Notes: generated from the sequence alone by a model not told the origin. 64,000 bases of DNA from Escherichia phage nieznany (NC_052659.1); one strand, 5' to 3'; positions 1 to 62,813 are shown, numbered from the stretch's first letter. Made by a program: numbers and translations.

Positions 1-243
1 GTGACCAAAGATCCAATTAATTTGCCTCCTAATGTGGTAGCTTGTTGTGGGAGTGGTTCAGGGGAAGTGGAGCCTGTATCCCGTTGGGAATTAACTAAAG
101 CTGTTTCAAAACGAAACGGTGAAGTTTTGAATATTGATATCGAGCAAATATGGACTTCTCCAGCAGCTAAATGGAATGATCCGAATGGTTGGGACTTGTT
201 CTTCTGGGATAATGAAACTGATGATGAGGTATTTTTAAAATGA
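1..243 (+). CDS. hypothetical protein (possibly 5' truncated at window edge)
   Basis: ORF begins at base 1 with GTG; no recognisable motif. Confidence 0.25.
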   Translation: MTKDPINLPPNVVACCGSGSGEVEPVSRWELTKAVSKRNGEVLNIDIEQIWTSPAAKWNDPNGWDLFFWDNETDDEVFLK

Positions 244-426: not shown

Positions 427-864
427 ATGAAAAAACTAGCCCTGATTTTAATTGGTTGTATCTTTTTAACAGCTTGCGAGGATGAGACAAATCCTGCACA
501 ATACCAACAACCTCCTCAACAATACGCTCAACAAGGATCTGACGGAGATACAACTATTATCAACAATGGTGGCGGTTCTAGTAGTAGCGGTGTTGGTGAG
601 TTTGCTACAGGTATGTTGTTAGGGCATATGATGAGTGGCGGTAGTAATCGTAGCAGTGGGGATTATAACGATAACAGAACGATTATTAATAAGCATTATA
701 ATACACCTAAACCGAAAACTAATTTTTATGGTAAGCCTAAACAAGAGATAAAAACTTATGAAAAGCCGAGACAAACTTTTAAAACAAATAGTAGCTATAC
801 AACTCGTAAATCTTACAATAGCCCTTTAAGTAAAAAGAGTTCATCTCGTAGCAAGCGACGTTAA
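427..864 (+). CDS. putative lipoprotein, Gly/Ser-rich
   Basis: Internal ATG at 427 preceded by AGGAAA; N-terminus MKKLALILIGCIFLTAC = signal peptide with lipobox Cys; track start 352 rejected. Confidence 0.5.
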   Translation: MKKLALILIGCIFLTACEDETNPAQYQQPPQQYAQQGSDGDTTIINNGGGSSSSGVGEFATGMLLGHMMSGGSNRSSGDYNDNRTIINKHYNTPKPKTNFYGKPKQEIKTYEKPRQTFKTNSSYTTRKSYNSPLSKKSSSRSKRR

Positions 865-878
865 TAAGGAGAAAAACA

Positions 879-1472
879 ATGACAATTTCTATTCGTACTT
901 CCATTACAGGTGTTAAAAGTTTGCCTAATGCTTTGCAAATCACACGTGCTTTGAGGGATACGTTCTCTGCTGTGGATGAGCATAAGATGCTCGATAATCT
1001 CTCAAATTGGCCCTATTTTCATTATTTTAAAAATGAAGACGACGAGTTTATAGACGCTGTTTCTTACGGTTATGATTTCGGTAAGGAGGTTTCTCCTGAA
1101 GAATTTGTAGTTATGGTGTTCCCAAACGGTTTGCCTACTCGCAGTAAACGTAAAAAAGGACCAAAAAACAAGAAACGTGCTACTAATAAAGCTACCATTT
1201 TCTTTACTGATGGCACACAATATACGATTAAAGATTTTGAAGAGGTATCTTATACAGCAGGTGGGAATCTTTCTTTCTACACCATCAAAAAACAAAACTC
1301 TACGTTCAGCCATGTTTCTAACATGATTGAAATGTTAGTAGAAGATATTGAAAGCGTAGCTGTGTTAGGTATGCATAAAAGCTTTTTAATTACAAATATT
1401 TCAGATTTCAGTGCACGTTTATCTGGTCCTGATTTTGAAACCACGACCACGCATTTCACTTTTAAGGTGTAA
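879..1472 (+). CDS. hypothetical protein
   Basis: ORF with RBS AAGGAG upstream of ATG. Confidence 0.45.
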   Translation: MTISIRTSITGVKSLPNALQITRALRDTFSAVDEHKMLDNLSNWPYFHYFKNEDDEFIDAVSYGYDFGKEVSPEEFVVMVFPNGLPTRSKRKKGPKNKKRATNKATIFFTDGTQYTIKDFEEVSYTAGGNLSFYTIKKQNSTFSHVSNMIEMLVEDIESVAVLGMHKSFLITNISDFSARLSGPDFETTTTHFTFKV

Positions 1473-1475
1473 GTT

Positions 1476-2066
1476 ATGTATACCGAGAGAGACTTGCAAC
1501 TCTTGTGGTGGGAAGTGATGCAGGAAATAAAAGAAGATTTTCCTGTTTACTACAACATGTTACGTGAAGCAGGATATAAAGCTTGTGTTAGAAACAAAGT
1601 GAATAACTCTTTCGGTTGGTGCAACTACCGAGATAAAATTGTTGTTGTAAATTGGCACTTGCATAAGAACTCTACAAGAGATATGATCGTGGATACAATG
1701 AAGCACGAAATTGCTCATGCTATTGATGGTTGTATGGGTAAGTTTAGTAGACACGGTGCTCATTGGCAAAAACTGGCAGCAGAGTTAGGGGCTAATCCTA
1801 AAGCCACTTCCAAAGAGCCGTTGAACCACGAATATAAATATGTTCTTGTTCTGGTAGATAGGTTTGCGACAAGATGTGTTAGAGGTTATAATCGTAAACC
1901 TAATCGCATGTACCCAGGTAAGCAACCTAATATGTGGTTGAAATCAGATAAAGAAGGGACCGAAGGAAAATTATGGTTGTATAAATGGGACGATTGGGTT
2001 AAAGTAGCTAAAGAGTACGGTGTTTCACCATATATAAGAGATGCAGAAGAGGAGAATGAAGAATGA
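1476..2066 (+). CDS. putative SprT-like zinc metalloprotease
   Basis: HEIAH (HExxH) motif followed by a downstream His, as in SprT-like domains. Confidence 0.4.
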   Translation: MYTERDLQLLWWEVMQEIKEDFPVYYNMLREAGYKACVRNKVNNSFGWCNYRDKIVVVNWHLHKNSTRDMIVDTMKHEIAHAIDGCMGKFSRHGAHWQKLAAELGANPKATSKEPLNHEYKYVLVLVDRFATRCVRGYNRKPNRMYPGKQPNMWLKSDKEGTEGKLWLYKWDDWVKVAKEYGVSPYIRDAEEENEE

Positions 2067-3175
2067 CAAGTCCATTTTTAAAAGCAGCTACTGGCGGTCA
2101 GAAGAAGCCTGAAATGAGCGTATTTGCTGCAACAACAGATGCAAGTAAATCTGTATTCGCTCCAAGCGTGTTAGATGCCAGTCCTGTTTATGCACCAGCG
2201 GCACCGCAAGAAGTTCCAGTTTTGCCTTCTATGACCCGACAAGAGATCGAAGAGATTGGGGCAGAGGCAGGAACAACCTTGCGTTCCTTGAATGCCGAGG
2301 TATTAAAACATCAACGTAGTAATCAAGGCGATCAGATGAGTGAACGACTCACAGCTTTGATTAAACAGGCAAAACAACTTGATCCAAACTCTATTAAACA
2401 AAGCAAGGGTATTACTAAACTCATTAAAAAAGTTATGGGTATGAAAGAAGATCTGTTTGGGGAGTTTGATAATGTTAATAACCGTATTGAAGAGTTGGTA
2501 AAAAACCTTCAAATGGATATTCGCAAAGAAGAAGATTCCTTGGTATATCTTGAAAAGCTACATCAAGCTATTGGACAATATGCTGCAAGTTTGAACCGAG
2601 ATATGCAGCTTCTAACAGCAACCTATGAAAAAGAAGAACAAGCTTTGGCTGCTCTTCCAGAAGATGCAGTAGAACAGCGACAAGTGATCCGAGATACTTT
2701 GGATCTTCTGGAGATTCGTATTGCAGATTTAAAAGCATTGCGCCTACTGTGTGTCCAAATGGGACCGCGTGTACAAGGTATGCAAAAAGTTTCTGCAAGC
2801 TTAATGCGATCTGCGCGTAACATAGTAAATAATGTTATTCCTGCTTACTCTGCTAACTTCTCAATGTATATCGAGAGCTTACGTCAAATGAAAGCAGCAG
2901 AGACGCAGAATAACGTTCTTGATGAATTTAACCTGGCAATTAAACTGGGTAGCGATCTTGCCACACAGAATCAGATCGAAGCAGCAGCACTGGCTAACCG
3001 TCAAGTGTTGGATATTGAAACTCTGCGTCACGATCAGGAAAACTTGGTTAAGATGTTGGAAGAAACTAACCGCATCAATACGGAAGCCCGTGCTGCTCGT
3101 GTTGATTATATTAATGAAGTTCAATCTTTGGAAGACGGGATGGTAGCTGCTGTGAAACGAGGGCTTGGTAAATGA
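2063..3175 (+). CDS. alpha-helical coiled-coil protein, possibly TelA-like (toxic anion resistance family)
   Basis: 370 aa, predicted helical with coiled-coil character; sits upstream of vWA and TerD genes; family assignment is inference only. Confidence 0.35.
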   Translation: MTSPFLKAATGGQKKPEMSVFAATTDASKSVFAPSVLDASPVYAPAAPQEVPVLPSMTRQEIEEIGAEAGTTLRSLNAEVLKHQRSNQGDQMSERLTALIKQAKQLDPNSIKQSKGITKLIKKVMGMKEDLFGEFDNVNNRIEELVKNLQMDIRKEEDSLVYLEKLHQAIGQYAASLNRDMQLLTATYEKEEQALAALPEDAVEQRQVIRDTLDLLEIRIADLKALRLLCVQMGPRVQGMQKVSASLMRSARNIVNNVIPAYSANFSMYIESLRQMKAAETQNNVLDEFNLAIKLGSDLATQNQIEAAALANRQVLDIETLRHDQENLVKMLEETNRINTEARAARVDYINEVQSLEDGMVAAVKRGLGK

Positions 3176-3372
3176 GAATCCGTATCTATATAATTGATGA
3201 GGACATTGGTGTCCGTTATGATGACGAAAAACGATTCGCGCCGATGGGAGGCATATATCCCCCAAGTGTTCTAGCAGTTTGTCGTGATTGTTATATTTAT
3301 GAAGGTTGTCGTAACTTCCGTAAATTCGAACTCCTTGCAGATATTGACTTCAATGAGGAGGAGGAGGAGTAA
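3172..3372 (+). CDS. hypothetical protein
   Basis: ORF overlapping upstream stop by 4 nt (translational coupling); acidic C-terminus. Confidence 0.3.
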   Translation: MRIRIYIIDEDIGVRYDDEKRFAPMGGIYPPSVLAVCRDCYIYEGCRNFRKFELLADIDFNEEEEE

Positions 3373-3545
3373 TGAAAATATTACGAGTGAATATTGAAAC
3401 TGCTTGGTGTGGATGCAATGAGGTTGTGGATATCGAAATTGAAGATGATATGTCTCAAGAGGATATAGAAGATCTTGCACACGAAACCTTTCAGGACTAT
3501 TGTAATTACGGGTTCCATATTTTAGAGGAGGAAGAGGATGTTTAA
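3372..3545 (+). CDS. hypothetical small acidic protein (57 aa)
   Basis: ATG at 3372 preceded by GAGGAGGAGG; below the 60-aa cutoff of the ORF track. Confidence 0.25.
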   Translation: MKILRVNIETAWCGCNEVVDIEIEDDMSQEDIEDLAHETFQDYCNYGFHILEEEEDV

Positions 3546-3741
3546 CTACGATAACGACCCTAATATTATCCAGTTAACCCGACAAGAACTGATCACAATC
3601 ATTGAAGATGCTTTTATTGATGGCTGGAATACACAAGACAATGATTGGGGTGGACCCGAAGCTTTTCTGGAACATCATAAAGCTTATGGAGAATTTTGTG
3701 AAACCACTGTAGCTCTTGATAATCTGAAGGAGGGTTTGTAA
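3538..3741 (+). CDS. hypothetical protein
   Basis: ORF in tight early-gene array. Confidence 0.35.
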   Translation: MFNYDNDPNIIQLTRQELITIIEDAFIDGWNTQDNDWGGPEAFLEHHKAYGEFCETTVALDNLKEGL

Positions 3742-4304
3742 TGGGTTGTTTTAGCTTTTTGTGCAAAGAATCGGGCAAAGCTGCCCTTTCTACTTCTTTC
3801 GACGGATCACCTTGTTATCTCTTTCTTTTGAAGGACGGTGTTGTTATTGAAGAGATGTATGGCAACTATGATAGTTATGGTTGTGTTTTCTCTGGAAAGG
3901 AGGATGAAAATGGCGTTCGTGAACGGTTCGAATGGGCTATGGATTGGGGTAAGGTTTGTGATTTAATGCATTCCTCGAATCCAAGGGATGGTATCGCTAT
4001 GGTGCTGGAAGAGTATTTTACAGGTGAAATCCCTACAGAACAATCTGACGGAGATCCTAACCAAGGTTGGGGTGATGGCGAAGAAGATCCAGATTGTTTT
4101 TTCAGCACAGAAAAGAATAAGTTTAAACGTGTTGACAACCCTTATCACAAAGTGCATAATACTCTCATTGAAACAGAAGATGACAAGATGGAAATTGAAG
4201 AAGATGATCCTCTTGTAACACTTCCTATAAGTGAGTTACAAAAGATCACTAAGGAAGCTTACGATTTGGGCTTCAAAATTGGTAGAGGAGGTATGCGTGT
4301 TTAG
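3741..4304 (+). CDS. hypothetical protein
   Basis: ORF, RBS GGAGGG upstream. Confidence 0.4.
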   Translation: MGCFSFLCKESGKAALSTSFDGSPCYLFLLKDGVVIEEMYGNYDSYGCVFSGKEDENGVRERFEWAMDWGKVCDLMHSSNPRDGIAMVLEEYFTGEIPTEQSDGDPNQGWGDGEEDPDCFFSTEKNKFKRVDNPYHKVHNTLIETEDDKMEIEEDDPLVTLPISELQKITKEAYDLGFKIGRGGMRV

Positions 4305-4575
4305 ATTCAATATTCAAGAAGAAAAAAGTCAGGATTTACCTATTGCTTTCGAAGATCTTGACGTAGGGGCCACATTCATGTATTATGATGCCTATGAAGA
4401 CGCAGGGTTGGATACCTACCGTAACTTGGTGTTCATTAAAAATTCCACAAACAGTGCGATTTGTATTAATGGATCACTAGCACAACGAGGCTATACTCAT
4501 TGCATCCCACCAGATACAAATATGGTGGAAGTAGATTTAGAAGTTACCAATATTACACTTAAGAAGGAGAAATAA
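4297..4575 (+). CDS. small protein, paralog A of duplicated Ter-associated ORF
   Basis: GTG start 6 nt after GAGGAGG; paralogous to 5597..5866 (shared DLDVG.TF, ITLK); directly precedes vWA gene. Confidence 0.45.
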   Translation: MFRFNIQEEKSQDLPIAFEDLDVGATFMYYDAYEDAGLDTYRNLVFIKNSTNSAICINGSLAQRGYTHCIPPDTNMVEVDLEVTNITLKKEK

Positions 4576-4576
4576 T

Positions 4577-5371
4577 ATGTCCGAGAAAATCAGCCTGAAA
4601 AAACGTCAAGAAAACCTTGCTTTCTCTCTGAAAAAGAATAAGAACCTGAATGAAGGTAAGATTGTTCTTCGTGTAGCATGTGCTCTAGATATTTCTGGTA
4701 GTATGCATGGTCTATATTCTAGTGGGGTAGTGAGTGATTTTGTAGGTAAACTGCTTCCTTTTGGTATGCTGTTCGACGATAATCAACAAATTGATATGTG
4801 GGCCTTCAATACGAGTTCCCAAGAGCTTACTCCAGCAACAGCAGACGTTTACGATGACTATGTTGGTAAATGTATGCGTAATGTTCGTATCGGAGGTGGA
4901 ACAAATTACGCCCCTGTAATGGCAGATATCTACGATGAGTATTTTGGCACTGTTACCAAATATATTACCACTAAACAAGTGGTACAAGAGGAGGCTCCAA
5001 AGAAAGGCTTCTTTAATCGTCTGCTTGGTAAAACTGAAACAGTGTCTGTAGAGCGTGAAAAAGTTGTAGCTGTATCTGAACCAGGTGCTGACGTTACCCC
5101 TGGTGTTGTATTCTTCCAGACGGATGGTGAGAATGGTGATCCTAGTGCTGTTCGTCGTCTTATTGAAGAGAATAAGAATAAACCTATTTATTGGTTCATG
5201 GTTGGCGTTGGTAATGAGAAGTTTGGCTTCCTGAAAGAACTGGCAAATGCTTATGATAATGTTGGTTTTATTGGCATTAAAGATTTAGACTTGACAGATT
5301 CAGAGCTTTATGACAAACTCTTATCTGAAGAGTTCGGAGAGTGGGTTGTTAAAGTAGGTGCTAAAAAATGA
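4577..5371 (+). CDS. von Willebrand factor A domain protein with TerD-like N-terminal leader (TerY/TerF-like)
   Basis: MIDAS-like DISGS motif, GGGTNY and TDGENGD motifs; N-terminus SEKISLKK resembles TerD N-terminus. Confidence 0.55.
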   Translation: MSEKISLKKRQENLAFSLKKNKNLNEGKIVLRVACALDISGSMHGLYSSGVVSDFVGKLLPFGMLFDDNQQIDMWAFNTSSQELTPATADVYDDYVGKCMRNVRIGGGTNYAPVMADIYDEYFGTVTKYITTKQVVQEEAPKKGFFNRLLGKTETVSVEREKVVAVSEPGADVTPGVVFFQTDGENGDPSAVRRLIEENKNKPIYWFMVGVGNEKFGFLKELANAYDNVGFIGIKDLDLTDSELYDKLLSEEFGEWVVKVGAKK

Positions 5372-5616
5372 TCGACGAGCTTGCCTCTCAAGTCGTAGAA
5401 AATTATTGGCGCGAGAGAGAAGCTTTCATTATGCGCAGTCTCAAAGAGTATTTCATTGGGACTGTGCGAATGGAAGATATTGTAAGTAGAGTAGAGATTC
5501 ATGTATGGCCCGATTATGAAGAATGGGTTGACAAAGAAAATGAAAATGCTATAATTCTTCGTATATACAAACCGGAGATAACATTAGGAGGAAGAAGTGT
5601 TAAACTTCGAAATTGA
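5368..5616 (+). CDS. hypothetical protein
   Basis: ORF overlapping neighbours by a few nt. Confidence 0.35.
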   Translation: MIDELASQVVENYWREREAFIMRSLKEYFIGTVRMEDIVSRVEIHVWPDYEEWVDKENENAIILRIYKPEITLGGRSVKLRN

Positions 5617-5866
5617 TGAGCAAAAAGTAAATAAACGATGCCTTACCATTAAAGATTTGGATGTAGGAGATACTTTCGTCTATGAAAATGCATTTGACGA
5701 AAATGGTTTAGACCTTAGTGAAATCATTGTTTATTTAAAAGTAGATGATGGGGAAAATGATTATTCTGCTGTAGAACTAAACCATCATGCACAATTAGTA
5801 TCAATCCAAAACACATCTAAGCTTTTGGAAGTAGAATTGACTGTAACTGGTATTACACTTAAATAA
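5597..5866 (+). CDS. small protein, paralog B of duplicated Ter-associated ORF
   Basis: GTG start after AGGAGG; paralog of 4297..4575; directly precedes TerD gene. Confidence 0.45.
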   Translation: MLNFEIDEQKVNKRCLTIKDLDVGDTFVYENAFDENGLDLSEIIVYLKVDDGENDYSAVELNHHAQLVSIQNTSKLLEVELTVTGITLK

Positions 5867-5881
5867 TAGAGGAGACAAAAG

Positions 5882-6484
5882 ATGACTGATAAAATTTCCC
5901 TGAAAAAAGGCTCTAGCGAAAAAATTTCCCTGAAGAAAGTTGCTCCGGCTCTGAAAGAACTGCGCCTGGAATTCTCTTGGAAATCTGATTCTAAACTGGA
6001 TCTGGATGTAAGTGCACTGGTTTGTCGTCACAATGCCGCTGGCAATCCTGAAATGCTGTCTGCACGTCATCTGGTTTGCTATGCTAACAAGTTTGATCCT
6101 GAACGTTCTACCTTCGCTGGTGACGATGTTCGTGATGGGACTGGCAGCATGGAGCAGATTGATATTACTCTGGCTAAAATCTCTCCTGATGCACAAGAGA
6201 TTGCCTTTGTTCTGACCATTGATGATGATACAGGTCTGAAACGTTTTGGTCATGCTTCTGAAGGTATGCTTAAAATCTTCGACTCCGAGCGTAATGTGGA
6301 AATTCTGGATTTTGACTTCCTGGCTCCTGAAGTAGCTGGCAACACAATCTGCCACGTGGCTTCCCTGGTTCGTGAAGATGGAGAATGGAAGCTGAAAGCA
6401 TATGGTGTAGGTAAAGCTGGTCTGGATATTTGCGATGTGGTGATGGCCTTCGGTGGTAAAAAAGAATGGTATGAATGTCCATAA
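5882..6484 (+). CDS. TerD-domain protein (tellurite resistance TerD/TerE/TerZ family)
   Basis: N-terminal repeated KISLKKG/KISLKKV, central LTIDDDTG acidic patch, C-terminal GEWK.KAYGVGKAGLD, about 200 aa: pattern of TerD family. Confidence 0.7.
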   Translation: MTDKISLKKGSSEKISLKKVAPALKELRLEFSWKSDSKLDLDVSALVCRHNAAGNPEMLSARHLVCYANKFDPERSTFAGDDVRDGTGSMEQIDITLAKISPDAQEIAFVLTIDDDTGLKRFGHASEGMLKIFDSERNVEILDFDFLAPEVAGNTICHVASLVREDGEWKLKAYGVGKAGLDICDVVMAFGGKKEWYECP

Positions 6485-6502
6485 TAATTAACAAATGATT
6501 TT

Positions 6503-6523
6503 GAGGGGGAGAAGTCCCCCCTC
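6503..6523 (+). terminator. GC-rich hairpin after TerD gene (weak intrinsic terminator)
   Basis: GAGGGGGAG..TCCCCCCTC stem; no clear T-run. Confidence 0.3.
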
Positions 6524-6524
6524 T

Positions 6525-6553
6525 TGCAATAAAGCCTCTATCGTGTTATACTA
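6525..6553 (+). promoter_or_regulatory. sigma70-like promoter (TTGCAA-17-TATACT)
   Basis: -35 TTGCAA 6525..6530, 17-nt spacer, -10 TATACT 6548..6553; RBS AGGAGG and TTG start at 6585 follow. Confidence 0.5.
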
Positions 6554-6584
6554 GAAGTTCGTTAACTTAAAAAGGAGGCAAAAT

Positions 6585-7106
6585 TTGCTGATAAAAAACT
6601 TTGTAACAGTTGCGTTACTATCCTTAACTGCTTTTACATTTACACCTGTTGTGGCGAAAGCCGAAGCTGCAAACGTAAAAACCGCTAAAGTAGTTCACAA
6701 ATGTACAAAGCAATATAATGATAAAATTCTATTAGCTTGTGCAATTTACGCAGAAGGTCGCGGTCTGGGTAAAAAAGGAATGAATGCCGTTGGGAATGTG
6801 GTAATCAACAGAAGAAATGATGCCTACTTCCCTAACACAGTCAAGGGAGTCTTGTTCCAGAAAGGGCAATTCTCATATGCGAAAACTTTTAACGTGACAG
6901 AGAAAGATAAGTGGCAGGAAGCAAAAGCAATAGCGGAGCGTTTACTTTATTTAGAGAAACATTTTCCTGAATTGCGGTCTGTTTTAGATGTTACTAAAGG
7001 TGCTCTATACTTCAAGAAACGGAATATAAGGACACACTGGGAGCGTGATATGCGTCTTGTTTATCGAGATAAAGTGCATGGTTTCTATCTACCAAAGGGG
7101 AGTTAA
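6585..7106 (+). CDS. SleB/CwlJ-like cell wall hydrolase with N-terminal signal sequence (endolysin candidate)
   Basis: AIYAEGRG...GMNAVGNVVINRR...VLFQKGQFSYA matches Hydrolase_2 signature; hydrophobic N-terminus. Confidence 0.55.
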   Translation: MLIKNFVTVALLSLTAFTFTPVVAKAEAANVKTAKVVHKCTKQYNDKILLACAIYAEGRGLGKKGMNAVGNVVINRRNDAYFPNTVKGVLFQKGQFSYAKTFNVTEKDKWQEAKAIAERLLYLEKHFPELRSVLDVTKGALYFKKRNIRTHWERDMRLVYRDKVHGFYLPKGS

Positions 7107-7107
7107 A

Positions 7108-7392
7108 ATGCAAGAAGATAATACTGTTGTTGTAGCAAGTTACCTGGTTGTCGGTCTTACCGAAGAGGACGTATACTACACCCGTAAACATTTGGAAGCA
7201 TACGCTACTTTGTTTATGGAAGATGAAAAGGATGTAGATAAATATAGCATTGATATGATCAACGACAGTATTTATCCTTGTATGGTTCTTAAAGTAGATG
7301 CTGTGCTGTGGGAGCGTTTTGCAAGGACTCATGATGCTGTAGAATGCTCCGCAGTAATGTCTCAAAACAACATTTTAGGGGAGATTCACTGA
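7108..7392 (+). CDS. hypothetical protein
   Basis: ATG at 7108 after AGGGGAG; track start 7045 rejected. Confidence 0.4.
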   Translation: MQEDNTVVVASYLVVGLTEEDVYYTRKHLEAYATLFMEDEKDVDKYSIDMINDSIYPCMVLKVDAVLWERFARTHDAVECSAVMSQNNILGEIH

Positions 7393-7807: not shown

Positions 7808-8371
7808 ATGATTTATTATATTACTCCCTATCTGACAGGAAATATCGGCAAGGCTATCAATGAAGCTATTGCCGTTCTTCCAGATGATAGTTGGGTGTGC
7901 TTAAGAGATACCGATACAATGTTCCTCCTGCCTGATCAACCATCTATGCTTGAAGAGCTTATTATGTCAAACCCGCCTTTTGATGTAATAGGTGCAACTT
8001 GTAACAGGTTAGGTAGTGGTTATCAGCTTTTCTCTAACCAAATTAACGATGATCCAAATATTCTAAACCATATAGAATATGCTAAGATTGCAAGAGAATA
8101 TCATAAAGTGAGTGTTGAAGAAGTTCCTTTCGGAACACCTCTGGCAGGTTTCTTTTTGCTTTTTAGAAAATCATTGTGGAATGAAATTCCTTTCGAAGAA
8201 AAATCTATCCAATTCGACCTAATTTTCTCTCGCACTTTACATGAAAAAGGAAAAAGGTTAGGATTGATGCGGGGAATGTATCTGTTTCACATTTACAGAT
8301 TAGGTCAAACAAATCCTCAACGGTCTATACATCATTTATTACACTGTCACGATCACAGTAAAACTATCTAG
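7808..8371 (+). CDS. hypothetical protein, possible GT-A-like glycosyltransferase
   Basis: DTD acidic motif; adjacency to other putative glycosyltransferases; weak. Confidence 0.3.
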   Translation: MIYYITPYLTGNIGKAINEAIAVLPDDSWVCLRDTDTMFLLPDQPSMLEELIMSNPPFDVIGATCNRLGSGYQLFSNQINDDPNILNHIEYAKIAREYHKVSVEEVPFGTPLAGFFLLFRKSLWNEIPFEEKSIQFDLIFSRTLHEKGKRLGLMRGMYLFHIYRLGQTNPQRSIHHLLHCHDHSKTI

Positions 8372-8379
8372 GAGAGAAA

Positions 8380-9063
8380 ATGGAAAATATTAAAATCGGA
8401 GTGGGTGTTATCACTGTAGGTGTCCGTCCACTTAAAGACTATCTTGTAACAGATCCACATGCAGATTTTCGAGTATTCAACGATCCAGATCGTAAAGGTG
8501 TAGCTTACGCCAGGAATGAACTTATGCACCAGTTTTATGAAGAAGGTTATGATTATTGGTTTATTTTTGACGACGATTGCTACCCAATCATGGAGGGATG
8601 GGAAACATATTTTGTAGATCAAGCTGTCTCTGGAGGATGGGATTTCTTTGGTATGCCGGAGTATTTCAAAGATAAAGTTGTTGGGAGTAAAGGAGAAGTT
8701 ATTCTCTGGGAACTTGCAATGTGTCAATTTGCAATGTATTCTCGTGCCGTTGTTGAGAAGATGGGTTATTTCCGCCCTTACACTCACGGCTATGGTTTTG
8801 AAGATGCTGAATGGGTACACCGTTTGAAAGCTGCTGGTTTGAATCAGGGCATTCAGGCAATACCTTGTCCACTTCATATCATGGCTTATATCCACCCAGA
8901 CGATGTTTTTGGAAACAATCCTATGCCTTTTGCTAATCTGACAAAAGAAGAGAAAGAAGCTGCTATTGGCATTAACTGGGAAGAATATAAAGCGTCTTTA
9001 GAAGATATTAAAAATGGGAAAATCCGAATTTCTTATGAGGAGGCACTGGCACATGTCAAATAA
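8380..9063 (+). CDS. hypothetical protein, possible GT-A-like glycosyltransferase (DxD)
   Basis: FIFDDDCYP motif resembles DxD of GT-A fold enzymes; weak. Confidence 0.3.
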   Translation: MENIKIGVGVITVGVRPLKDYLVTDPHADFRVFNDPDRKGVAYARNELMHQFYEEGYDYWFIFDDDCYPIMEGWETYFVDQAVSGGWDFFGMPEYFKDKVVGSKGEVILWELAMCQFAMYSRAVVEKMGYFRPYTHGYGFEDAEWVHRLKAAGLNQGIQAIPCPLHIMAYIHPDDVFGNNPMPFANLTKEEKEAAIGINWEEYKASLEDIKNGKIRISYEEALAHVK

Positions 9064-10000
9064 AAAATGGACTAAACTGAAAATTGATGCAAAACCTCAC
9101 AGTGGTTGTGATTATCATCGTATTGTTATACCATTTAACAACAATAATCTTCAACCTAAGAAAGATGTTGTTGTGTTTAACCGTATTCACTCTAAAGGTG
9201 CAGAATATGTTTTGTCCCTGAAACGTCAAGGTGTTAAGATTGTTGTAGATTTAGATGATTTCTACCAACTTAATCCAGAACATTATTTAGCAAGTCTATA
9301 CGAGTCAAACACCCATTCTATTGTAGCTATGGTTAAGCTTGCTGATGTGGTCATTGTGACTACGGAATACTTGGCATATAAGATCCGTCACTTAAATAGG
9401 AATGTTGTTGTGATCCGAAATGCACTTCCTTTTGATAGCGGACAATTCACTTTGTCAAATGATCGTTCATCCGGTACCCCTGTCGTATGGGCTGGCGGTG
9501 CTAGTCACGAACCCGACTTACGACTAGTCTCTAATACTTTCGACGATGACCTTCTTACTATTGCGGGATATGAGGCATCACAGAGCATCACGGGACAAGA
9601 GTGGATTAAGATTCGCAGAAATTTACCAAATGCCAAATATAAAGCCGCTGTAAAAGATTTAGATAATTACATGAGTGTTTACGAGGGTCATGCTATTGCT
9701 ATAGCTCCTCTGGTAGATAACGATTTTAATAATTGTAAAAGTAATCTCAAAATCTTGGAAGCTGGGGCAAAAGGTATTCCAATTGTTTGTTCTAAGGTAT
9801 TACCTTATTTTAACCCTGTAGATGCTCGCGCTGTTGCTTACGCAGAGAATAAAGCAGAATGGCATTACGAAATTGTTAAGCTTCTTCGCAATCCGAACTA
9901 TCGGGAAGATCGTGGCTTGTTCTTAGCGGAACATGTTCGAACACATTATAATCTGGCAGATGCAAACGAATTGCGACGCCAGGTTATTGAAAGTTTGTAG
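9053..10000 (+). CDS. putative GT-B fold glycosyltransferase (paralog 1)
   Basis: ATG 9053 after GAGGAGG; C-terminal NNCKSNLKILEAGAKGIPIVCS resembles GT1/GT4 motif; paralog of 10008..10952. Confidence 0.45.
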   Translation: MSNKKWTKLKIDAKPHSGCDYHRIVIPFNNNNLQPKKDVVVFNRIHSKGAEYVLSLKRQGVKIVVDLDDFYQLNPEHYLASLYESNTHSIVAMVKLADVVIVTTEYLAYKIRHLNRNVVVIRNALPFDSGQFTLSNDRSSGTPVVWAGGASHEPDLRLVSNTFDDDLLTIAGYEASQSITGQEWIKIRRNLPNAKYKAAVKDLDNYMSVYEGHAIAIAPLVDNDFNNCKSNLKILEAGAKGIPIVCSKVLPYFNPVDARAVAYAENKAEWHYEIVKLLRNPNYREDRGLFLAEHVRTHYNLADANELRRQVIESL

Positions 10001-10007
10001 GTGAAGT

Positions 10008-10952
10008 ATGGGACAAATAATTCTTGACAATCGTAACGGAATCAATTATAGTGTCTGCGATTTCCATAGGGTAGTGCTGCCTTACTCAAGGCAGTTCTCT
10101 TCACAACCTAAATACAACGTTTTCGTTTTTAACGGAGTGCCAACAAAAGGTAAAGAGGGCTTTTTAGCCCTTAAAAACCTGGGCTTTAAAATGGTTATGG
10201 ATTTGGATGACTCTTTAGTTATTCCAAAAGGACACATGTTAGAAGGTATTTTTGAATCAGGTATTCGTGAACATTTAAAATGGTTTTTAGAGCACAGTGA
10301 TCTTGTTACAACTACGACACCTGCCTTGCAAGTTGAACTTTCACAATACAATGATAATGTGCACATAATCCCTAATGGACTTCCTTACGATGAAGGTCAA
10401 TTTGTGTTGACCCGTGATCGCTACTCCAAAACTCCATTAGTCTGGGCTGGAAGTGAAACACATAAACAAGATTTGGCTATCTTGCCCGATTTTGGTAAAG
10501 ATCTTACAATATGTGGTTTTCGTAGGGATTCTGAAGTTTTAAGTAGTCGTGAATGGTCTTTAATCAGGGAAAATGTAGCACCAACTTGTGTTTATGAAGG
10601 TGTAAGACCATATGCCAACTACATGGAATCTTACGATGGTCATCAAATCAGTCTTGCACCATTGATCGATAACGTGTTTAATAATGCAAAAAGCAATCTT
10701 AAAATTCTTGAGGCAGGTGCTAAGGGTTTACCTTTAATCTGCTCTCCTCGTGAGAATTATCATACACAAGAGTTTAAAGATTTGTTATTCTTTGCTGAAA
10801 CACCTTCCGAGTGGAAAGATATTACGGAATACTTATTAAGTGCTCCCGATGTTTGCATGGAGAAAGGATTAGCATTAGCTAAGTATGTCAGGACTCATTA
10901 TCACATTGATGTGTTGAATGAGCGTCGTAGACTTTTATTTGAGGAGCTATAA
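10008..10952 (+). CDS. putative GT-B fold glycosyltransferase (paralog 2)
   Basis: Shares CD(Y/F)HR, DLDD, PLVWAG, NNAKSNLKILEAGAKGLPLICS with 9053..10000. Confidence 0.45.
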   Translation: MGQIILDNRNGINYSVCDFHRVVLPYSRQFSSQPKYNVFVFNGVPTKGKEGFLALKNLGFKMVMDLDDSLVIPKGHMLEGIFESGIREHLKWFLEHSDLVTTTTPALQVELSQYNDNVHIIPNGLPYDEGQFVLTRDRYSKTPLVWAGSETHKQDLAILPDFGKDLTICGFRRDSEVLSSREWSLIRENVAPTCVYEGVRPYANYMESYDGHQISLAPLIDNVFNNAKSNLKILEAGAKGLPLICSPRENYHTQEFKDLLFFAETPSEWKDITEYLLSAPDVCMEKGLALAKYVRTHYHIDVLNERRRLLFEEL

Positions 10953-60800: not shown

Positions 60801-60879
60801 TGGAGGCGGGAATTGGATTTGAACCAATGATCTCCAGCATATGAAACTGGCGAGGACGACCAGACTCCTCTATCCCGCT
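60801..60879 (-). tRNA. tRNA-Met or tRNA-Ile2 (anticodon CAT), CCA encoded
   Basis: Manual cloverleaf: acceptor AGCGGGA/TCCCGCC (1-72 mismatch), anticodon loop TTCATAT, T-arm ATTGG-TTCAAAT-CCAAT, discriminator U. Confidence 0.6.
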
Positions 60880-60885
60880 ATTAGG

Positions 60886-60955
60886 TATCCCGTGCTGGAT
60901 TCGAACCAGCATCACAATAAGCTGTGGAACTCTTATCCTGTAAGTCTAACGGGAA
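60886..60955 (-). tRNA. tRNA-like gene with non-canonical anticodon region (anticodon undetermined)
   Basis: Canonical T-arm GCTGG-TTCGAAT-CCAGC and 6-bp acceptor stem, but no D-arm and only a 5-bp stem with 10-nt loop where the anticodon arm should be. Confidence 0.35.
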
Positions 60956-60957
60956 AC

Positions 60958-61031
60958 TGGTTGTTTCGACAAGAATCGAACTTGTGTCTCACGATTATCA
61001 GTCGTGGGTTCTACCATTGAACTACGAAACA
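60958..61031 (-). tRNA. tRNA-Ile (anticodon GAT), CCA encoded
   Basis: Acceptor CGAAACA/TGTTTCG, D-arm GTTC-AATGGTA-GAAC, anticodon loop CTGATAA, T-loop TTCGATT. Confidence 0.8.
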
Positions 61032-61037
61032 TTAAAT

Positions 61038-61114
61038 TGGTCGGAATTGCAGGATTCGAACCTGCGACCCTACGCTCCCAAAGCGTATGCTCTACCAAAC
61101 TGAGCTAAATTCCG
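61038..61114 (-). tRNA. tRNA-Pro (anticodon TGG), CCA encoded
   Basis: Acceptor AATTCCG/CGGAATT, D-arm GCTC..GAGC, anticodon loop TTTGGGA, T-loop TTCGAAT. Confidence 0.8.
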
Positions 61115-61207
61115 TCATAACATTCTAAAGGTACACCGCAAAAGAAAGTGTTCGGCGGCTCCTCGTTTTTAACTTCACACTTGAGGTAGTGACTCACCTT
61201 TGTTATA

Positions 61208-61283
61208 TGGCTGGTCTGTCTGGATTTGAACCAAACCTACGACAGTCAAAGTGTCGTGTGCTACCGGACTACACTACAAACCA
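61208..61283 (-). tRNA. tRNA-Gln (anticodon TTG), CCA encoded
   Basis: Acceptor TGGTTTG/CAGACCA, anticodon stem CGACA/TGTCG, loop CTTTGAC, T-loop TTCAAAT. Confidence 0.7.
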
Positions 61284-61381
61284 ATAAATCATTTAATGAA
61301 GGGCAACCAGAAGAGGTGTGAGAGAAGGAGAAAACCATGAGTAAAAGAGAAAGTTTTCTGGCAACCCTTTATTAAATAATT

Positions 61382-61455
61382 TGGAGCGTTCTACGAGGAT
61401 CGAACTCGTGCCGCCGACTTGGAAGGACGGAATGCTACCGCTACACCAAGAACGC
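61382..61455 (-). tRNA. tRNA-Gly (anticodon TCC), CCA encoded
   Basis: Acceptor GCGTTCT/AGAACGC, anticodon loop CTTCCAA, discriminator U as typical of bacterial tRNA-Gly. Confidence 0.7.
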
Positions 61456-61466
61456 CCTACATCTTT

Positions 61467-61496
61467 ACTATACTACATTTTACTATTGGTTGTCAA
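61467..61496 (-). promoter_or_regulatory. sigma70-like promoter for tRNA sub-cluster 1 (TTGACA-18-TATAGT), minus strand
   Basis: Plus TGTCAA 61491..61496 within CTATTGACAA motif; -10 about 6 nt upstream of tRNA-Gly 5' end. Confidence 0.45.
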
Positions 61497-61771
61497 TAGT
61501 TTTATTGAGTGGGACAGTGACGAGTATCCCGTTGGGTGACTAGCCCTACGTTCGGTAAGCTAACTTAAAATAATACAAAACCAAAGTCAAATATTATTCT
61601 TCGTTGCTGTCGATGGGAGAGCCGCTTCTTCTTTTGCCCCATCCAACCCTACTCCGGTCAAGTTTCAGGTAACTCTTTTTGTGTGATCAACACAATACTA
61701 AGAACACTGTCTTTCGAACAGACCTTGTGCACAGGATACGACGATCAATCACAGTGCTCTTAATGTTGTGT

Positions 61772-61846
61772 TGGTGCTCCCACTCTGAATCGAACAGAGA
61801 TCCACGGATTACAAAACCGTTGTAATAGCCATTATACTATAGGAGC
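61772..61846 (-). tRNA. tRNA-Thr (anticodon TGT), CCA encoded
   Basis: Acceptor GCTCCTA/TGGGAGC, anticodon loop TTTGTAA, T-arm CTCTG-TTCGATT-CAGAG. Confidence 0.65.
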
Positions 61847-61852
61847 AAAGCT

Positions 61853-61929
61853 GGGACTCGGCAGGATTCGATACCTGCAATTCCAGAAGCCTCTTGGCGA
61901 CTGGGGGTTTACCTTAACTCTACAAGTCC
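61853..61929 (-). tRNA. tRNA-like gene with non-canonical T-loop and anticodon region (anticodon undetermined)
   Basis: 7-bp acceptor stem GGACTTG/CGAGTCC, T-stem GCAGG/CCTGC with 8-nt loop TATCGAAT, no clean 5-7-5 anticodon arm. Confidence 0.3.
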
Positions 61930-61936
61930 ATAATTC

Positions 61937-62023
61937 TGGCGATGAGTATAGGATTTGAACCTATATCGTTCTTTCGAACACGGATTAACAGTCCGCCGCT
62001 TAAACCATTCAGCCAACTCATCT
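61937..62023 (-). tRNA. tRNA with Asn anticodon (GTT) on a long-variable-arm scaffold, CCA encoded
   Basis: Perfect acceptor ACTCATC/GATGAGT, discriminator G, anticodon arm GCGGA-CTGTTAA-TCCGT, plus a 15-nt extra arm GTTCGAAAGAACGAT. Confidence 0.55.
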
Positions 62024-62028
62024 TAATT

Positions 62029-62116
62029 TGGTGGTGAGTGATGGAGTCGAACCACCCGAATCGCAATGATAACAGATTTACAGTCTGCCCCGCTACCCCT
62101 ACGGAATTAACTCACC
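62029..62116 (-). tRNA. tRNA-Tyr (anticodon GTA), type II, CCA encoded
   Basis: Acceptor ACTCACC/GGTGAGT, anticodon arm GCAGA-CTGTAAA-TCTGT, long variable arm, T-loop TTCGACT. Confidence 0.7.
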
Positions 62117-62245
62117 TAAATACTAATATTTAAATTCTTTTTAAAATAGCCAGTGTTCACACCACTAACTATGAGTTATCGGTAAGATGGTGGGGCCATC
62201 TGCCGAAAGTTTACTCTATTAAAGTAAGCCATATTAAAAAGAACT

Positions 62246-62331
62246 TGGCGGTAGATGTAGGACTCGAACCTACACGCCGTTTCCGACTACAGTTTAGCAA
62301 ACTGTCGTGGCTACCATTTCACCAATCTACC
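62246..62331 (-). tRNA. tRNA-Ser (anticodon GCT), type II, CCA encoded
   Basis: Acceptor ATCTACC/GGTAGAT, 3-bp D-stem GTG/CAC, anticodon arm ACAGT-TTGCTAA-ACTGT, 15-nt variable arm, discriminator G. Confidence 0.75.
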
Positions 62332-62336
62332 TAATC

Positions 62337-62427
62337 TGGCGGAAGGAGGGAGAGTCGAACTCCCAAGGCTCTTTCAAGCTCGGCGGTTTTCAAGACCGTT
62401 TTCGTCGCCACGTCGATTTGCCCTTCC
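62337..62427 (-). tRNA. tRNA-Ser (anticodon TGA), type II, CCA encoded
   Basis: Acceptor GGAAGGG/TCCTTCC, anticodon loop CTTGAAA, long variable arm, T-arm GGGAG-TTCGACT-CTCCC; D-region atypical. Confidence 0.6.
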
Positions 62428-62436
62428 ATACTTATA

Positions 62437-62465
62437 ATCTAACATAAAATAATGTTTGTTGTCAA
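62437..62465 (-). promoter_or_regulatory. sigma70-like promoter for tRNA sub-cluster 2 (TTGACA-17/18-TTAGAT), minus strand
   Basis: Plus TGTCAA 62460..62465 within CTATTGACAA motif; ends a few nt upstream of tRNA-Ser(TGA) 5' end. Confidence 0.4.
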
Positions 62466-62661
62466 TAGTTTTTTAAAACATTTTACCATGAATGGTGACT
62501 CCACCAACCCCCGTTCTCCACGAACGGTGCTCTTCGAGCATTTATGTCTTCTAATATAACCGTGGCCTTTGTTTATAATGTCTGACATACTTGCCTCATT
62601 CTCTGCCACCATGATCAGTAGTGGGTTCAAATCACTTGAGCTAATTCATGTTAAAATGTTC

Positions 62662-62736
62662 TGGTGTCTTTACAAGGAATCGAACCTTGACTAAGAGTTT
62701 AGAAGACTCCTGTGCTATCCATTACACCATAAAGAC
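62662..62736 (-). tRNA. tRNA-Arg (anticodon TCT), CCA encoded
   Basis: Acceptor TAAAGAC/GTCTTTA, D-arm GTGT..GCAC, anticodon loop CTTCTAA, T-arm CAAGG-TTCGATT-CCTTG. Confidence 0.75.
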
Positions 62737-62738
62737 GT

Positions 62739-62813
62739 TGGTGGCCCTGGCTGGTTTCGATCCAGCTACCTATCGGTTATGAGCCGACAGCTCTCCCATT
62801 GAGCTACAGGGCC
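62739..62813 (-). tRNA. tRNA-Met, elongator-type (anticodon CAT), CCA encoded
   Basis: Perfect acceptor CAGGGCC/GGCCCTG, D-arm GCTC-AATGGGA-GAGC, anticodon loop CTCATAA, atypical T-loop ATCGAAA. Confidence 0.65.

Follow-up and report, generated by a model that had tools for sequence, protein, structure and literature searches.

What does a set of Ter-type genes do for the phage that carries it? This question is raised by positions 2063-6484 of a 64,000-nucleotide stretch of Escherichia phage nieznany (NC_052659.1; hereafter the window), in which the initial annotation had recognized, from the sequence alone, genes for TelA-like, von Willebrand factor A (vWA) and TerD proteins accompanied by small paralogous open reading frames (ORFs). 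Our analysis shows that the phAPEC8/phi92-type myoviruses (Stephanstirmvirinae) share a conserved Ter module, and that this segment makes up its downstream half. The Ter gene set found here is already known and represents no new kind of system. Three minor details, namely a putative partner family with a predicted SH3-like fold, paired predicted promoters and a MinD-like motif, appear to be additions, as we found no description of them in searchable papers.

Pfam profile searches for TerD, TelA and VWA gave significant matches for all three of the larger proteins. The first (2063..3175, +; 370 amino acids, aa), proposed earlier to be a helical protein compatible with TelA, matched the TelA family PF05816 (E=3.2e-33) over 303 residues (59-361 of 370), which form a helical domain after a disordered N-terminal segment of ~58 aa, and it also matched phrog_5890, ‘tellurite resistance’ (E=1.5e-139). 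The last (5882..6484, +; 200 aa) is a TerD-domain protein, as had been proposed, matching PF02342 (E=3.2e-28) and the solved TerD structures 2KXT (E=1.5e-15) and 3IBZ (E=2.9e-14). Between them, the 264-aa protein encoded at 4577..5371 (+) matched the vWA-TerF-like family PF10138 (E=1.6e-37). The intact DxSxS motif noted earlier was confirmed as D38-I-S40-G-S42, and T109 and D183 complete the metal ion-dependent adhesion site (MIDAS). In an alignment of 13 family members, including bacterial homologs, D38, S42, T109 and D183 were invariant and S40 nearly so. The AlphaFold model of this protein (pLDDT 88.6) was matched by Foldseek to integrin I-domains, the MIDAS domain of MDN1 and the copine BON1. 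Thus, the vWA assignment and the analogy to Ter systems were both upheld by the domain identities, but the vWA protein is of the TerF type rather than the TerY type suggested previously.

The initial annotation had also pointed to a TerD-like leader (SEKISLKK) at the N terminus of the vWA protein. The motif itself is present, but it is not special to the phage. The pattern ISLxK...SLxK (‘KISLKK’) is kept across the entire stand-alone vWA-TerF-like family, including a Neobacillus protein, with L7 and K9 invariant in the same alignment, and because bacterial members share it, the motif is not a phage invention. Alignment by hhalign of vWA residues 1-36/3-40 with TerD residues 2-33 gave a weak match (E=0.0013, probability 19%), which is at most suggestive of homology between the two N termini; AlphaFold, however, predicts a helix at vWA residues 7-20.

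The TerD protein has a partly kept Ca2+-site motif. Residues D40, D42, D82 and E91 were invariant in an alignment of phage and bacterial TerD proteins, and we take these, together with the motif GDGDDE, to be Ca2+-liganding residues according to the TerD structure papers. Ca2+ binding by the phage protein is plausible from this conservation and may be altered. TerD proteins of the phage clade also carry a conserved C-terminal extension of ~20 residues (G-L-D-I-x-D-V-V-x-A-F-G...W-Y/F, residues ~180-200); the bacterial TerD structures lack this tail, which might bind a partner.

A 5.8-kb query covering window positions 1400-7200 was 99.8% identical to Escherichia phage ESCO13 (Phapecoctavirus) and 98-99.6% identical to dozens more phAPEC8-like phages (Phapecoctavirus, Stephanstirmvirinae). 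It matched 130 phage records, 63 of which reached at least 80% coverage, at identities of at least 95%. Campylobacter phage B15 (MG065650), Acinetobacter phage ABPW7 (OP562383) and Klebsiella phage ZCKP1 (MH252123) were 98.5-99% identical to the E. coli Phapecoctavirus genomes in this region; the host labels of such records may be unreliable, or the host range may be unusually broad. According to the GenBank annotations, gp209-gp227 of ESCO13 and gp172-gp187 of phi92 are direct orthologs of the module genes. The ESCO13 record already labels TelA, TerC and TerE, and that of phi92 uses ‘stress/toxic anion resistance’, ‘membrane bound tellurium resistance’ and ‘stress protein’; neither record, however, gives more than ‘hypothetical’ for the vWA protein and the small ORFs, while some newer records name a VWA domain. 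In phi92 (Justusliebigvirus) the syntenic genes are gp187 (HAD), gp186 (PRTase), gp185 (Macro), gp182 (TerC), gp178 (TelA), gp175, gp174 (small ORF), gp173 (vWA), gp172 (TerD) and gp170 (hydrolase).

As this gene order indicates, the window starts inside the module. Its first positions (1..243, +) hold the 3' end of the ORF that follows terC in the ESCO13 and SF1-1 loci, and genes for TerC, Macro, PRTase_3 and HAD proteins lie right upstream in SF1-1, ESCO13 and phi92, with terC about 0.15-1.1 kb upstream of the window start. The TerC of these relatives matched PF03741 (E=3e-40) and passed TIGR03718, ‘TerC/Alx family metal homeostasis membrane protein’ (319 bits vs the cut-off of 246). The PRTase_3 proteins matched PF15610 with E values of 2.2e-41 and 6.1e-41, and the HAD match (PF00702) had an E value of 1.2e-5 in phi92 and was weak in SF1-1. 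A Ter study of 2012 reportedly linked PF15610 to Ter systems. The PRTase_3 gene and terC flank a gene for a Macro-domain protein (Pfam Macro, E=7e-5), located ~1.5-2 kb ahead of the first window position (2688-3161 of the SF1-1 locus, L001; 2604-3320 of the phi92 locus, L003). This protein resembles the DarG macro domain (PADLOC E=4e-10; NCBIfam E=1e-8, far under the full-length cut-off), and by this likeness it could be a phage anti-DarTG ADP-ribosyl hydrolase.

We compared the module with the bacterial Ter systems (terZABCDEF of IncHI2 plasmids, E. coli O157 and Klebsiella, and TelA/KlaA). The two share TerC, the TerD fold, a TerF-type vWA domain and TelA, and the PRTase and HAD branch is also found in the phage module. 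However, the phage module has one TerD paralog where the bacterial systems have TerZ, A, D, E and F, its vWA protein stands alone whereas that of bacterial TerF is fused to TerD, it adds small putative partner genes of predicted SH3-like fold that the bacterial systems do not have, and its genes are scattered among other phage ORFs rather than arranged in one tight operon. Similar hubs have been published for phages. Klebsiella phage phiKp34 carries terC, terF-vWA, two copies of terD and telA (PMC8386662), Pseudomonas phage phiPsa374 carries terC, terD, terF and telA (PMC9796965), and a Ter hub was described in Caulobacter jumbo phages and in Acinetobacter phage ME3, which also has PRTase and HAD enzymes (PMC7824862). 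The same jumbo-phage comparison noted complete and abbreviated phage Ter systems, some of them in related smaller tailed phages (PMC7824862). These hubs of virulent and jumbo phages share the four-protein set of TerC, TerD, vWA and TelA with the module described here, which differs from published hubs such as phiKp34, with two TerD proteins, in that the phAPEC8 and phi92 lineages have SH3-like small ORFs and one TerD. Membership in TerY-P or another catalogued defence system was considered and rejected because the PADLOC models gave no match for TelA, vWA or TerD.

A survey of related phage genomes confirmed that the module is conserved and syntenic, both in phi92 and in the distant Stephanstirmvirinae phage KP13-16. 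The latter, which may be related to phiKp34, has a compact version with TerC, vWA, TelA and two adjacent ORFs at the TerD position that both align as TerD; one of them carries the annotation yceD/general stress protein 16U. Among 50,697 phage records, 208 contained homologs of the vWA protein, 144 of TerD and 221 of TelA, and these include phages of Escherichia, Klebsiella, Pseudomonas, Caulobacter, Brevundimonas, Rhizobium, Bacillus and Acinetobacter. The module genes are under purifying selection. In comparisons with phi92 and phiWec190, in which synonymous sites were near saturation, the ratio of nonsynonymous to synonymous substitution rates (dN/dS) was 0.03-0.09 for TelA, 0.06-0.13 for TerD, 0.06-0.15 for vWA, about 0.11 for a 187-aa ORF described below and 0.19-0.36 for the small ORF preceding the vWA gene (dN/dS 0.03-0.36 overall). 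A blastn search with the module DNA returned no match in 5,426 complete E. coli genomes, and the phage TerD is ~31% identical to TerD of enterobacterial plasmids. These two results reject a recent capture from a host ter island; by sequence, the genes have long belonged to the phage lineage.

The claim that each Ter-domain gene is preceded by a paralogous small ORF held for vWA and TerD but not for TelA, which is preceded by a SprT-like gene instead. Small ORF A (4297..4575, +; 92 aa) lies before the vWA gene and small ORF B (5597..5866, +; 89 aa; phrog_11278, E=7e-45) before terD. The two are indeed paralogous, with 33% identity by BLASTP (E=3e-13) and shared membership in phrog_11278. ORF A starts not at position 4231, as first annotated, but at the GTG at 4297, which has a ribosome-binding site and is kept in relatives. 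Its stop codon is 1 nt ahead of the vWA ATG, a spacing that fits coupled expression. When 1.84 billion representative proteins were scanned in full with HMMER, 13 stand-alone family members of 87-93 aa were recovered, none of which had a Pfam family match, and a word-indexed homolog search with ORF B gave 2 matches. In all six further contigs examined (L006-L011), the small-ORF gene adjoins a vWA-TerF-like gene, terD, or both. The order is vWA-small-TerD in L006 and L008, small-vWA-TerD in L009 and L010, small-TerD in L011, and vWA-small followed by a cut 185-aa ORF in L007. In L006, a divergent metagenomic relative, a Band_7 (SPFH/stomatin-like) membrane-scaffold gene (2095-2574) directly follows vWA, the small ORF and TerD, a neighbourhood that fits a membrane-associated role of the module. 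The number of copies varies: phi92 has one, before vWA, Phapecoctavirus has two, one in each position, and hmmsearch found no homolog in KP13-16. In a rough neighbour-joining tree without support values, the pre-vWA copies split from the pre-TerD copies, and therefore the paralogs appear to be old and position-specific.

AlphaFold modelled the small ORF product as an SH3-like beta-barrel. Some of its closest fold matches of low root-mean-square deviation were FeoA-type SH3 domains, which come from metal-uptake and metal-regulator proteins. The small ORFs constitute a phage-only family whose fold is predicted to be SH3-like. Two other identities were rejected. The products are not truncated TerD domains (hhalign probability 0.3%), nor cadherin-like Ca2+-binding repeats, since the matches to giant repetitive proteins span just 16 residues and the predicted fold is that of the barrel. 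We also rejected a segmental duplication as the source of the ‘KISLKK’ start shared by the two genes. The DNA repeats at 4526-4603 and 5826-5908 are 76-77% identical, but the motif is ancestral in both protein families and the paralogs are old and position-specific; the similarity around the start codons is better explained by the shared peptide motif together with the ribosome-binding site.

Each small ORF is preceded by a predicted promoter. A perfect sigma-70 consensus with an extended -10 element (TTGACA-16-TGcTATAAT) was found at 5528..5555 (+), 42 nt before ORF B. It is the only perfect match within the window, and 7 of 100 shuffled sequences yielded at least one. The site is also perfect in SF1-1, ESCO13 and the divergent phiWec190, where it is intact though the ORF that contains it has 61% protein identity. 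This containing ORF (5368..5616, +; 82 aa; phrog_22387, E=1e-57) is confined to Phapecoctavirus-type genomes and is absent from phi92, in which TerD directly follows vWA. The second site (4132..4160, +; TTGACA-17-CATAAT with TG upstream) has 11 of 12 consensus matches and lies ~135 nt before ORF A. Its hexamers and TG are invariant in the window, phi92 and phiWec190, and the wobble positions of the spacer vary; as it is located inside coding sequence, this conservation may partly reflect protein constraint. The ORF that holds it (3741..4304, +; 187 aa) is conserved and homologous to gp175 of phi92 (phrog_14928, E=2.4e-125), and it had no match in Pfam, NCBIfam or PDB searches. The two sigma-70-like sites fit early transcription by host RNA polymerase. 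A literature search found no Phapecoctavirus transcriptome.

The vWA model contains a long beta-hairpin insertion (residues 125-169) that forms an arm with a short helix at its tip. The tip, residues 142-152, reads KKGFFNRLLGK, and the corresponding motif in homologs is AKGFLAKLTGK, KGGFFGKLLGK, KPGFLNKLFGK or VKSFFGKLFGK. We compared it with the C-terminal end of MinD from E. coli K-12 (EEEKKGFLKRLFGG), which is the MinD membrane-targeting sequence. KKGFFNRLLGK and the MinD segment KKGFLKRLFGG are identical at 7 of 10 positions and have hydrophobic moments of 0.26 and 0.27, respectively. However, the motif is C-terminal in MinD, whereas in the vWA protein it is internal, on the tip of a beta-hairpin insertion and without an ATPase. 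The likeness is a resemblance rather than a sign of family membership, and it offers a lead toward peripheral membrane binding. We found no mention of such a motif in the searchable literature.

Other genes surround and separate these components. A SprT-like zinc metalloprotease gene (1476..2066, +; PF10263, E=4.2e-9, HEIAH motif) overlaps the telA start codon and also occurs upstream of TelA in the metagenomic contig L010; it is a recurrent neighbour whose membership in the module is uncertain. Three small, acidic ORFs (3172-3372, 3372-3545 and 3538-3741, all +) lie after TelA and ahead of the vWA unit and are annotated as coding sequences in ESCO13, SF1-1 and phi92. They are syntenic filler, and the sole match among them was a weak one of ORF 3372-3545 to DUF7167 (E=7.5e-5, under the curated cut-off). 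Window positions 427-864, between terC and telA, encode a probable lipoprotein with the lipobox MKKLALILIGCIFLTAC followed by a Gly/Ser-rich, very basic tail; its annotated starts differ between ESCO13 and SF1-1, and it is a candidate envelope or superinfection-exclusion factor. Downstream, a SleB-type cell-wall hydrolase and probable endolysin (6585..7106, +; PF07486, E=2e-17) is the next conserved gene after TerD. The hydrolase gene (Hydrolase_2) directly follows TerD in L008, L009 and L010, is a few genes downstream in L006 and is the second gene past TerD in phi92. Its position beside TerD is probably synteny only.

In Phapecoctavirus relatives the locus is part of a co-oriented nucleotide-metabolism and replication arm, with an anaerobic ribonucleotide reductase upstream and four glycosyltransferases, a primase/helicase and a DNA polymerase downstream of the module. 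In the window, the four successive glycosyltransferase genes occupy positions 7808-10952, right before the primase/helicase gene, and one of them (8380-9063) has a weak match to the TET-associated glycosyltransferase family (PF20691, E=0.0013); the cluster may serve DNA or surface glycosylation. Further away, 10 tRNA genes (Met x2, Ile, Pro, Gln, Gly, Thr, Asn, Ser, Arg) lie on the minus strand at 60801-62813.

How might these products act together? The reading that we favor, at about an even chance of being correct, is that they form a metal-dependent complex under the inner membrane, expressed early, which shields the infected cell's envelope and keeps out rival phages and colicins. Host RNA polymerase would transcribe the module genes early in infection, and the products would come together at the inner membrane, on its cytoplasmic side. 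In this complex, TerC would form the core within the membrane and TerD would be the subunit that binds Ca2+, the vWA protein would be tethered through its MinD-like amphipathic motif while its MIDAS engages a partner, and TelA would form a helical layer beneath the membrane. The SH3-like proteins would serve vWA and TerD as dedicated adaptors or would help in their assembly. By altering envelope or ion properties, the complex would confer resistance to the entry of rival phage DNA and to pore-forming colicins, and the infected cell would stay energised until lysis. The phage would in this way use for itself the phenotypes of bacterial ter genes, phage inhibition and colicin resistance.

We favor this reading because of the phenotypes of the bacterial genes and of a published proposal. 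Bacterial terC, terD and terZ are required for phage inhibition and colicin resistance, TerC-TerD is the reported minimal functional unit, and deletion of terC in Klebsiella leads to larger plaques (PMC12054061). According to the published proposal, Ter systems help phages to fend off superinfecting ones, and TelA and TerF-vWA are components located beneath the membrane (PMC7824862). A more specific version, which we regard as rather unlikely, holds that the SH3-like proteins are a phage-only fifth Ter component. They would be position-specific adaptors that load vWA and TerD onto TerC in the inner membrane, with the MinD-like helix as the vWA tether, and the result would be an early, phage-specific sub-membrane shield.

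Several observations weigh against envelope protection and exclusion. The likeness to MinD is a resemblance over 10 residues, and both predicted promoter-like sites sit within coding sequence. The metal motif of TerD is partly degenerate, with GTGSME replacing the canonical GDGDDE in the phage clade. No Pfam match to TerB was found among all ORFs scanned in the cluster, where a very divergent TerB is possible, and the PADLOC models gave no match for TelA, vWA, TerD, the small ORFs, PRTase or TerC. Phapecoctavirus and phi92 have a single TerD, and with TerB undetected as well, the phage set may not reproduce the bacterial phenotypes; the same caveat was raised for the phiPsa374 set (PMC9796965). 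Finally, we found no experiment on a phage-encoded Ter gene in the searchable literature, and one Ter report (PMC12827599) concerns host genes only.

The strongest alternative, which we nevertheless consider improbable, is metal homeostasis. The TerC/Alx transporter, TerD with its Ca2+, the MIDAS of the vWA protein and TelA would retune how the infected cell handles Mn2+, Ca2+ and Zn2+. Phage metallo-enzymes, for instance the adjacent anaerobic ribonucleotide reductase, could thereby be supplied or protected, or exported proteins could be metalated, and exclusion would be at most a side effect. The score of the phage TerC above the TerC/Alx metal-homeostasis cut-off agrees with this idea, as do the metal-binding motifs of the vWA protein and, in part, of TerD, and the FeoA-type SH3 domains among the closest fold matches of the small ORFs. 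E. coli Alx is described as a Mn2+ exporter (PMC10197570). TerC of K. pneumoniae gives resistance to Zn(II) and Mn(II), but it is probably not itself a Zn/Mn efflux pump (PMC12054061). Metal homeostasis also leaves unexplained TelA, the PRTase/HAD/Macro branch and the retention of the whole hub in phages of very different hosts.

The initial annotation had suggested host takeover or counter-defence, and we give this a still smaller likelihood. The module would stabilise the membrane against depolarising or permeabilising effectors of abortive infection, or its PRTase, HAD and Macro proteins would destroy or mimic an ADP-ribosyl mark or an immune signal derived from a nucleotide. Bacterial homologs of TelA have been connected with tolerance of envelope stress, which counts in favor of this reading, as do the early-type predicted promoters, the resemblance of the adjacent Macro protein to the ADP-ribosyl glycohydrolase macro domain of DarG, and the PRTase_3 and HAD enzymes within the same cluster. 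However, no match to a known anti-defence family was found, the Macro, PRTase and HAD genes are outside the window and several unrelated ORFs away from TelA, vWA and TerD, and the known phenotypes of bacterial Ter systems are defensive, not anti-defensive. Superinfection exclusion and envelope protection are favored no less strongly by the bacterial phenotypes (PMC12054061) and the phage-Ter proposal (PMC7824862).

The weakest alternative is a passenger ‘moron’ that gives the host resistance to tellurite or xenobiotics and has no role in the lytic cycle, as the database label ‘tellurite resistance’ would suggest; it is very improbable, because the genes are strongly constrained and syntenic across genera, the absence of similar DNA from the E. 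coli genomes and the distance from plasmid TerD point to an old phage gene set, and these phages, including the genus Phapecoctavirus, are regarded as virulent. Xenobiotic resistance during pseudolysogeny was raised as a possibility for phage Ter genes (PMC7824862), but components thought to be needed for tellurite resistance are missing from the set (PMC9796965).

Altogether, many unrelated virulent phages keep a minimal set of TerC, TerD, vWA and TelA under strong purifying selection, and therefore the set must pay off within one lytic cycle. Of the bacterial ‘resistance’ genes that lack a known mechanism, Ter and TelA genes belong to the most widespread, with links to virulence and to resistance against phages, colicins and metals. 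The value of the finding is that it points to a testable question about the role of Ter proteins and adds three small details. The coliphage module would be a convenient test system, with separable gene pairs that each have a promoter-like site, and with small partner proteins. If the SH3-like proteins are indeed adaptors for vWA and TerD, this module would provide the first tractable, minimal and genetically separable model of how any Ter system works.

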